The notes below the pieces were generated by a model that was not told the DNA's origin, did not search any database, and saw only the letters and a list, made by a program, of their open reading frames with translations. Source: Dehalococcoidia bacterium (lineage in GTDB: Bacteria > Chloroflexota > Dehalococcoidia > SM23-28-2 > RBG-16-64-32). Taken from it: DNA of 64,000 nucleotides. Shown piece after piece: positions 31,934 to 33,100 of the stretch. Made by a program: the position numbers and the translations under genes. Position 1 is the stretch's first letter. Each line of letters opens with the position of its first letter. Location of the stretch: the NCBI GenBank assembly GCA_035512435.1, contig DATKDX010000057.1:46829-110828 (forward strand), read 5' to 3'.

Positions 31934-32302
31934 ATGGCAGACGAAGCGGCCGTCCACGCAGCGCTCATCGAACTATTCGGCGTCGCCAACGCGCCGCTGA
32001 CGCTGCCGCAACGCGTCCAGCGTAGCGCCCCAGTGCTGAACCGCATCGGCATGACCATCGAGCAGCTCATCGACACGATCCGGCAGCCGGATCTCAGCTG
32101 GAACGCCGAGCGGGCGAAAGCGCTGGGTGTTACGCCGGCCGTCTGGCAGGACGCGCTGACTGCGGCCGGCCTCGAGGCCGTCTACGACCTGGCGATGCTG
32201 CTTGATGTAATGCACCGCGCGGAAGCGGCCTCGGCAATGCTGCGGGCCGGGTACGTGCCATCTACAGACGTCGAGGGCAAGCTAAACTGGGTGCGTGCTT
32301 GA
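31934..32302 (+). CDS. hypothetical protein
   Basis: 122-aa ORF, no family recognised. Confidence 0.4.
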   Translation: MADEAAVHAALIELFGVANAPLTLPQRVQRSAPVLNRIGMTIEQLIDTIRQPDLSWNAERAKALGVTPAVWQDALTAAGLEAVYDLAMLLDVMHRAEAASAMLRAGYVPSTDVEGKLNWVRA

Positions 32303-32401
32303 CCATCCCTCACACAGGTTTGACGCGATTTGTTACGCTAGTCTATATTCGATTCCCGGACGTGCCCCACGTCCAAACTAGGCAAAGAGGTGTGATTCAA
32401 C

Positions 32402-32521
32402 GTGACAAACCAGGTCGGTAAGCGATACATGTGCGGCAAGTGCGGCACCGAGATGATCGTCACCAAGGGTGGCGAAGGCGAACTCGCCTGTTGCGGCGAG
32501 ACCATGCAGCAGAAGCAATAG
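32402..32521 (+). CDS. desulforedoxin-like small metal-binding protein (39 aa, CxxC…CC)
   Basis: GTG start 9 nt after AAGAGGTG RBS; VTNQVGKRYMCGKCGTEMIVTKGGEGELACCGETMQQKQ; Cys spacing C-x2-C-x15-CC identical to Desulfovibrio desulforedoxin; not in ORF track (too short). Confidence 0.6.
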   Translation: MTNQVGKRYMCGKCGTEMIVTKGGEGELACCGETMQQKQ

Positions 32522-32536
32522 GCGGGAGGGACTACA

Positions 32537-32680
32537 TTGGCTAACCAGCTAGGCAAGCGATTCCAGTGCGAGACCTGCAACACGGAAGTGCTCTGCATCA
32601 AGGCCGGCGACGGCGAGATTGCGTGCTGCAGCAAGGCGATGGAGCTCATGCAGCCGAAGGTCCTGCCCTCGGCAGACTAG
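32537..32680 (+). CDS. desulforedoxin-like small metal-binding protein, tandem paralog (47 aa)
   Basis: TTG start 6 nt after GGGAGGG; LANQLGKRFQCETCNTEVLCIKAGDGEIACCSKAMELMQPKVLPSAD; same C-x2-C-x15-CC spacing. Confidence 0.55.
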   Translation: MANQLGKRFQCETCNTEVLCIKAGDGEIACCSKAMELMQPKVLPSAD

Positions 32681-32908
32681 CGTCCGCCCCGTACGAGCCA
32701 AGTGCCGCTCGCCGTGGGCGGCTCTTTACAATTGGGACGGGAAACGTCGGGCCGCATCCGGATGTCGTATGTCCCACGCGCCCGCTCAACAACGTGCCGC
32801 GCCCCCTGGTGTTCCAAGCCCGTTGCCGTTGCCCTTGACCGTAAACGTTAATAAACCTACAATCCAGACTGATTTCCCATACATTGTATGGCCGAGGAGT
32901 GATTCTTT

Positions 32909-33100
32909 TTGCCCGAAGTGATCATCAACAACAGTGATAACTTTGACCAGGCCCTGAAGAAGTTCAATAAGCTCGTGCAGCAGACAGGCATCCTGGCTGA
33001 GGCGCGCCGGCGGGAGCACTACGAACCGCCCAGCGTCGTCCGCAAGAAAAAGGCCGCCGCCAAGCGCCGCAAGAGCATGAAGAACACCCAGCGCGGCTAG
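32909..33100 (+). CDS. rpsU: 30S ribosomal protein S21
   Basis: TTG start after GAGGAG RBS; MPEVIINNSDNFDQALKKFNKLVQQTGILAEARRREHYEPPSVVRKKKAAAKRRKS is canonical bS21. Confidence 0.85.
   Translation: MPEVIINNSDNFDQALKKFNKLVQQTGILAEARRREHYEPPSVVRKKKAAAKRRKSMKNTQRG

Follow-up and report, generated by a model that had tools for sequence, protein, structure and literature searches.

A conserved tandem pair of desulforedoxin-like mini-proteins in uncultured Chloroflexota

The window analysed here, a stretch of 64,000 nucleotides (nt) from a Dehalococcoidia metagenome-assembled genome (MAG; assembly GCA_035512435.1, contig DATKDX010000057.1), carries two adjacent small genes on its plus strand, dxA and dxB, whose products we call A and B. 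The first (32402..32521, GTG start) encodes 39 amino acids (aa), VTNQVGKRYMCGKCGTEMIVTKGGEGELACCGETMQQKQ, and the second (32537..32680, TTG start) encodes 47 aa, LANQLGKRFQCETCNTEVLCIKAGDGEIACCSKAMELMQPKVLPSAD. They lie in the same frame, separated by a TAG stop codon and 15 nt. Both proteins have cysteines at positions 11, 14, 30 and 31, giving the motif C-x2-C-x15-CC, and B has in addition Cys20 and the C-terminal tail QPKVLPSAD. Each gene has its own Shine-Dalgarno sequence: AGAGGTG (32386..32392, plus strand) with the GTG of dxA 9 nt downstream, and GGGAGGG (32524..32530, plus strand), within the spacer, with the TTG of dxB 6 nt downstream. An earlier note made from the letters of this DNA had described the two open reading frames (ORFs), their starts, their ribosome-binding sites and the cysteine spacing exactly so. 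It had also reported the genes as absent from the ORF track, which held for the track at hand but not for GenBank, where both are called on this contig, A as HUF54827.1 ("desulfoferrodoxin") and B as HUF54828.1 ("hypothetical protein"). Our own assignment of the two genes draws on the ORF list, Pfam family PF06397, PDB matches and homologues, with an AlphaFold2 (AF2) model in addition for dxB. Gene callers often miss A in other assemblies.

A sigma-70-type promoter, TTGACG-18-TATATT (32320..32349, plus strand; 10/12 matches in a promoter scan), precedes the pair. Both of its boxes are invariant in an alignment of the window's own clade while the flanking sequence diverges, and the same promoter occurs at about 30 other loci, 22-59 nt (mostly 37-59) before A. 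Purine-rich sites comparable to AGAGGTG also precede A at other loci. The downstream neighbour, rpsU (32909..33100, plus strand, TTG start), encodes ribosomal protein S21 (Pfam Ribosomal_S21, E 1.8e-19) and has a near-consensus promoter of its own, TTGACC-17-TACAAT (32835..32863, plus strand; 10/12 matches). Since A and rpsU have separate promoters, the pair is its own transcription unit. A perfect 7-bp hairpin, GGACGTG-CCC-CACGTCC (32358..32374, plus strand), lies in the 5' leader between the -10 box and the ribosome-binding site of A; its folding is at the level of shuffled sequence (z -0.28), it was not seen to be conserved in relatives, and it is probably incidental. Beyond dxB, RNA folding gives a G+C-rich hairpin followed by UCUUU (32704..32722, plus strand), statistically ordinary (z -1.07) and uncalled by the terminator scan, which is a weak candidate for the terminator of the pair. 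Rfam has no match around the pair, so no riboswitch or other RNA element was found there.

With each species represented by one genome, a scan identified relatives of B in at least 574 genomes, and the best 80 of these are nearly all uncultured Chloroflexota/Dehalococcoidia MAGs. From those genomes and from metagenome contigs a survey of 80 distinct A-B pairs was assembled. Homologue clusters at 60-90% identity number 103 for B and 52 for A, nearly all of exactly 47 and 39 aa, respectively. The ratio of nonsynonymous to synonymous substitution rates (dN/dS) between the window and 15 orthologous loci is 0.04-0.33 across both genes (0.06-0.33 for A). Over the 80 orthologous pairs, the third codon position of the plus strand varies at 0.27-0.30, compared with 0.07-0.11 at the other positions, and a 103-aa antisense ORF (32338..32649) is broken at 41 of the 80 loci. 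In one common set of 29 genomes, the median identity to the window is 76% (A), 83% (B), 79% (S21), 58% (YqeY) and 65% (7TM-HD protein). A and B are thus real genes under strong purifying selection, as highly conserved as ribosomal protein S21. Non-ATG starts are usual for A in the 80 loci (47 GTG, 23 TTG and 10 ATG). The pair had been called unexpected in its gene context; conservation in relatives, the check proposed at the time, shows it to be no oddity of this genome but a lineage-wide trait of Chloroflexota, kept in at least 574 species genomes.

Both proteins pass the curated gathering threshold (23 bits) of Pfam PF06397, Desulfoferrod_N, the family whose search had been put forward as decisive: A scores 31.3 bits (E 1.6e-7) over profile positions 4-34 of 36, and B scores 25.6 bits (E 9.4e-6) over positions 5-36. 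The best PDB sequence matches are the N-domains of desulfoferrodoxin (1dfx, 1vzg, 2ji1) and the desulforedoxin of Desulfovibrio gigas (1cfw/1dxg), with 1dfx and 1cfw matched by A and 1vzg and 1cfw by B. An AF2 model of B, built from 38 homologues, has a pLDDT of 78, and in Foldseek its top matches are the desulfoferrodoxin N-domains 2ji1 and 1vzg and the desulforedoxin 1dxg_A; on the last it superposes with a root-mean-square deviation of 1.0 Å over 33 columns (TM-target 0.81, probability 1.00). CXXCX15CC is the defining metal-binding motif of the desulforedoxin domain (SORGOdb, PMC3116461). Judged from the sequences, then, the pair can be assigned the desulforedoxin fold and motif, as had been proposed from the cysteine spacing, with the superposition itself resting on the predicted model of B. 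Rubredoxin was rejected as a candidate: the second ligand pair is an adjacent CC and not CxxC, and there is no match to a rubredoxin family. Other than PF06397, no curated family was found for the tail-bearing branch to which B belongs.

Such a desulforedoxin-like identity is already implicit, at the level of the family, in public annotation, and the names given to the genes go further. The GenBank name "desulfoferrodoxin" overstates A because the catalytic centre II domain of superoxide reductase is absent (neither PF01880 nor TIGR00332 matches A or B, although PF01880 does match the control P0218) and because A reaches only 22.7 bits against the TIGR00320 cut-off of 146.9, with B at 27.5 bits equally far below it. 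In Joint Genome Institute (JGI) annotation B often appears as "transcription elongation factor Elf1", a zinc ribbon whose models PF05129 and NF011482 do not match B at E values up to 10; even for P0156, a fused relative, these models give E values of 0.45 and 0.013, far short of the cut-offs. By these family models neither name holds.

A and B share four cysteines and the invariant N-terminal motif N3-Q-(V/L)-G-K-R-(Y/F)9, and are recognizable as paralogues by profile alignment (hhalign E 5e-23). Each also has residues of its own, M18-I-V-T-K in A, and V18-L-C20-I-K with the tail Q39-P-K-V-L-P-S-A-D47 in B, and the two are anciently diverged paralogues in separate orthologous groups. Wherever upstream sequence suffices, A lies directly upstream of B, with two exceptions only (L064 and L070). 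In the 80 pairs the spacer is mostly 9-22 nt long (mode 14) with a GGAGG-type site inside. The frame offsets 0, 1 and 2 are evenly represented, therefore read-through of the A stop codon into B, which the shared frame in the window would allow, is ruled out. Of the 80 A and the 80 B sequences, 79 each retain the four ligand cysteines; Cys20 is present in 79 B sequences, and every B has the tail. In a deep-ocean branch (L099-L178, G+C content 42-64%) the A-then-B order holds at 72 of 73 loci and Cys20 is invariant, with a longer spacer of about 20-100 nt (mostly 30-70). Through all changes in their flanks A and B stay together, A is the sole invariant partner of B across contexts, and the tandem pairing is obligate. 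The duplicated desulforedoxin of the earlier note is more than a simple duplication, being an obligate pair of distinct orthologous groups, of which B alone has Cys20 and the QPKVLPSAD tail. Two of the best 80 genomes carry labels of other phyla, Candidatus Binatia (L057, with a cytochrome bc operon) and Acidobacteriota (L094); both have typical Chloroflexota-type pairs, and the labels are probably binning errors rather than signs of horizontal transfer.

The genomic context of the pair was surveyed at 86 de-duplicated loci, 70 of which have at least 3 kb of upstream sequence. At 51 of these 70 the pair directly follows a co-directional cytochrome bc (bc) operon, with about 100 nt between the end of the operon and A. 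The genes of this operon are those for cytochrome b (N), cytochrome b (C), a Rieske protein, a cytochrome c-cupredoxin and, in most cases, a second cupredoxin. Gene content on the outer sides of the bc-pair block is heavily shuffled, with 24 gene families upstream of bc (36 loci) and 20 downstream of B (39 loci), so the bc-pair junction is more stable than background synteny. This context suggests a functional link between the pair and the bc complex, and it bears out the aerobic-type setting that had been noticed around the genes. The adjacency to rpsU, which had been given prominence, is real but secondary: the gene is found no more than 2.5 kb downstream of the pair at 38 of 64 loci, and no more than 350 nt away at 13 of these, whereas the commonest neighbour, the bc operon, does not occur in the window. 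As a primary neighbour rpsU was rejected, since its linkage is weaker and was not found in many lineages. Only 5 of 53 loci have neither a bc operon nor rpsU adjoining. Called mini-genes stand just before cytochrome b (N) in three lineages (L004 251..385, 44 aa; L008 623..721, 32 aa; L010 442..564, 40 aa) and may represent another conserved mini-subunit of the bc complex.

Within the window, the pair is flanked upstream by genes for an SDR protein, a type-1 thiolase-like protein and an unknown 122-aa ORF, with proB farther upstream on the opposite strand, and downstream by those for S21, YqeY and a 7TM-HD protein. The 122-aa ORF (31934..32302; HUF54826.1) ends just before the promoter of the pair; it is a singleton cluster with a relative only in L016, and Pfam has no match for it.

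An exhaustive search with a profile of the B alignment retrieved 1,048 representative clusters at E<=1e-3. Among these are many single-chain relatives of 80-120 aa in which a linker joins an A-like N-terminal half to a B-like half with (K/R)-x-LPS(S/A)D at its end. The largest branch of such fusions (P0305-P0422; loci L096-L098 and L179-L183) has 4,704 clusters (90% identity) from Acidimicrobiia/Actinomycetota, about 101-105 aa long, annotated only as "hypothetical" and free of Pfam domains. The C-terminal half of the Acidimicrobiia fusion aligns to full-length B (hhalign probability 98.9%, E 1.5e-17). Its AF2 model predicts one compact unit including the linker (pLDDT 93, pTM 0.82), for which no meaningful PDB match was found. 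Across this branch GKRY, the cysteine of VLC(T/V)K that corresponds to B Cys20 and the terminal K-x-LPSSD are invariant or nearly so. The same marks recur in superfamily alignments A1, A5, A6 and A8 as G-K-R-(Y/F), the V-L-C-x-K cysteine and the (K/R)-x-L-P-S-(S/A)-D end, and B of the window carries all three, with A upstream. A further group (P0220, P0235, P0251, P0258, P0260, P0268, P0276, P0285 and P0288) joins an unknown N-domain of about 65 aa (GFRW..GG) to a B-like module with the tail, and P0218 is a true desulfoferrodoxin with the B-like N-domain MANQLGKRY...VLCNK. One 122-aa relative, P0158, has a hydrophobic signal-like N-terminus and the reverse order, B-like then A-like. Like the tail-bearing branch, neither kind of fusion was found in a curated family besides PF06397, and the Acidimicrobiia family is a candidate for a new one.

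The fusion genes lie in heterogeneous operons. In L179 (2757..5908) the fusion gene stands between a thiolase gene, whose stop it overlaps, and a DUF35 gene (zf-ChsH2/OB), with 4 nt left to the start of the latter; in L097 (4040..7770) its start lies at the stop of a molybdopterin oxidoreductase gene, and a gene for an AMP-binding enzyme comes next. SDR-thiolase(-DUF35) genes also stand upstream of the pair in the window and in L013. This recurrence could reflect a functional link or the mere abundance of those families.

The desulforedoxin of D. gigas is an Fe-binding homodimer (PDB 1dxg), and to our knowledge desulforedoxin, a model protein of bioinorganic chemistry for decades, has been known only from a few sulfate reducers. 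It resembles the pair in being a stand-alone mini-protein (about 36-47 aa), in its identical ligand spacing and in the 33-column superposition of the B model; it also works as a two-subunit unit, as we infer for the pair. The differences are that desulforedoxin is a homodimer of one gene product from sulfate reducers, whereas the pair consists of two diverged paralogues from aerobic-type Chloroflexota, that A and B share the invariant NQxGKR(Y/F) N-terminus, that B has the extra Cys20 and an 11-residue conserved tail, and that relatives of the pair tolerate Cys-to-His changes or full loss of the ligands. Domain I of desulfoferrodoxin, the class I (2Fe) superoxide reductase (1dfx, 1vzg, 2ji1; TIGR00320), gives the best sequence matches, and B aligns with it even through the linker between domains I and II (...M-E/K-L-M...), but catalytic centre II has no counterpart in the pair. 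The Acidimicrobiia fusions are in effect the pair as one chain, with an A-like half and a full-length B-like half; they differ in phylum, in their catabolic operons, which are not beside bc genes or rpsU, and in the loss of most metal cysteines. Rubredoxins such as RubA/RBD1 of photosystem II are likewise small Cys4 proteins encoded beside genes of electron-transport complexes, where they serve as one-electron carriers or assembly aids. They are monomeric, with two CxxC knuckles, and belong to another fold family; the analogy finds no evidence of a membrane anchor or an assembly role for the pair.

dxA and dxB form a bicistronic, independently promoted operon for two paralogues of the desulforedoxin fold. 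The best overall explanation, which we favour by a modest degree, is that this autonomous operon encodes an A:B heterodimer of that fold, serving as a cytoplasmic module for electron transfer or as an adaptor. The two genes would be transcribed from their own conserved near-consensus promoter, and their translation is probably coupled. The products would be cytoplasmic mini-proteins with one metal ion per C-x2-C-x15-CC site, and such binding of one metal by the four cysteines of each protein is, from the motif, very probable. A 1:1 heterodimer is likely in view of the constant A-then-B order, the close coupling of the genes and the natural fusions; it would mimic the two-metal homodimer of desulforedoxin with its halves non-equivalent, B supplying the fifth conserved cysteine and the flexible tail QPKVLPSAD. 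We give an even chance to a docking role for this tail, through which the dimer would attach to a partner protein. Electron transfer by the A:B unit is somewhat less probable than that, and the identification of the partner in most Dehalococcoidia as the bc-type complex (cytochrome b/Rieske/cytochrome c-cupredoxin) is tentative. More speculative still is the broader proposal that the pair is the founding example of a widespread and as yet unnamed two-module superfamily of the desulforedoxin fold, with hetero-pairs in Chloroflexota, single-chain fusions in Acidimicrobiia and elsewhere, and a conserved core made up of the K-x-LPS(S/A)D tail and GKRY rather than the metal site, and that in Dehalococcoidia A:B serves the cytochrome b/Rieske/cupredoxin complex from the cytoplasm as a hitherto unrecognized accessory protein or redox partner, for instance by feeding or tuning its n-side or by helping in its assembly.

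Several observations weigh against a metal-dependent redox module linked to the bc complex. With regard to the complex, no bc operon exists in the whole 64-kb window, and none was found in the window's clade, which shares the SDR/thiolase-like upstream genes. Marine relatives have neither a bc operon nor rpsU adjoining, their neighbours being lineage-specific (lipA, an MTHFR-like gene, a thioredoxin-like gene and an RNA methyltransferase gene), and bc linkage was not found in the fusion branch. The promoter TTGACG-18-TATATT is present at bc-linked loci too, so the pair, with its own promoter even behind a bc operon, is not co-transcribed with the bc genes. With regard to the metal site, both proteins miss the 36.05-bit cut-off of NCBIfam TIGR00319 (desulf_FeS4), A with 21.1 and B with 18.0 bits, and are therefore a divergent branch by that stricter model. 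In the deep-ocean branch the second cysteine of the doublet in B is replaced by histidine (C-x2-C-x15-C-H) in 29 of 53 distinct pairs, and in one Chloroflexota lineage (L008/P0103) all B ligands and one A ligand are lost while the rest is kept. The Acidimicrobiia fusions have lost most metal ligands and are still 64% identical, which weakens a strictly redox role. Because the ligands are lost in the fusions and in L008/P0103 while the tail and GKRY are kept, the alignments indicate that the hallmark of the wider superfamily is the tail with the N-terminal motif, not the metal site. A purely redox or metallochaperone reading, in line with the Fe/Zn module suggested in the earlier note, is thus not secure, as the tail and GKRY outlast the metal cysteines in the superfamily. 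Within the clade of the window, selection on the metal sites is strong.

The main rival to an electron-transfer heterodimer, doubtful on balance but well ahead of the others, is a non-redox adaptor in which Zn or Fe only holds the fold, while the NQxGKR(Y/F) surface and the K-x-LPS(A/S)D tail bind or regulate a partner. It accommodates a superfamily in which GKRY, the Cys20 equivalent and the tail are invariant but the four ligand cysteines can be lost, the common CCCH variants, a fusion that without its Cys4 site is still predicted to fold confidently, B-like modules joined to the unrelated domain of about 65 aa, and fusion genes placed in operons as diverse as those with thiolase/DUF35, molybdopterin oxidoreductase and AMP-binding genes. 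The retention of all eight ligand cysteines in 79 of 80 pairs of the window's clade is, however, explained only by selection for metal binding, the CC geometry is typical of redox-active desulforedoxin and not of ordinary Zn ribbons, and no partner was found among the contexts. The resemblance of B to the desulfoferrodoxin N-domain and linker (1vzg residues 8-43; Foldseek 2ji2_A, 46 columns), the existence of P0218 with its B-like N-domain and the NCBI name of A could also be read as signs of an oxidative-stress module, in which the pair would be the detached desulforedoxin half and donate electrons to a separate one-iron superoxide reductase (neelaredoxin). We consider this improbable: PF01880 is absent from A, B and their neighbours within the contexts examined, those neighbours are respiratory or housekeeping genes and not genes against reactive oxygen species (ROS), and the fusion branch has no metal site.

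Slightly less probable again are two redundant homodimeric desulforedoxins, products of a local tandem duplication without specific A-B interaction. The clear paralogy of A and B and the homodimeric state of classical desulforedoxin would fit, but the fixed differences between them (M18-I-V-T-K as against V18-L-C-I-K and the tail), the A-then-B order with tight spacing in more than 130 distinct pairs from deep lineages, the A-like then B-like order of natural fusions and the lack of any A-A or B-B tandem among the pairs seen all speak for a specific hetero-pair. The proximity of rpsU at many loci, conservation at the level of S21 and a weak, sub-threshold similarity to eS27-type ribbons might point to zinc-ribbon mini-proteins associated with the ribosome or with translation. 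This is very unlikely, given that rpsU has its own promoter and lies far from the pair in many lineages, that the pair is near-neutral in charge, unlike ribosomal proteins, and that no ribosomal family matches near threshold. Finally, A and B might be chance ORFs, the real gene being the antisense ORF; long antisense ORFs occur at about half of the orthologous loci and are common in high-GC DNA. The significant Pfam matches, the low dN/dS, the third-position variation in the plus-strand frame together with the breaks in the antisense frame, and the promoter and ribosome-binding sites conserved in the plus orientation refute this reading, to which we attach a negligible probability.

Literature searches on desulforedoxin-like proteins, Chloroflexi, PF06397 and heterodimers returned no description of this pair. 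What appears undescribed is the obligate hetero-pair itself, the special features of B, the lineage-wide spread with conservation at the S21 level, the linkage to the bc operon and the link to a large, unnamed fusion family. A survey of Chloroflexota MAGs reports "superoxide reductase/desulfoferrodoxin" among ROS-defence enzymes (PMC11653643), and ROS-defence surveys that rely on the name "desulfoferrodoxin" may be inflated. The Acidimicrobiia fusion family, with 4,704 clusters, a confidently predicted fold and no Pfam domain, is a ready target for family curation. In the Chloroflexota, the finding makes a desulforedoxin-fold module, probably highly expressed, a core two-gene unit of aerobic-type members, among them abundant soil, subsurface and deep-ocean lineages without cultured representatives. 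If the link with the bc complex is functional, the pair would be a new soluble component of a poorly studied respiratory chain.

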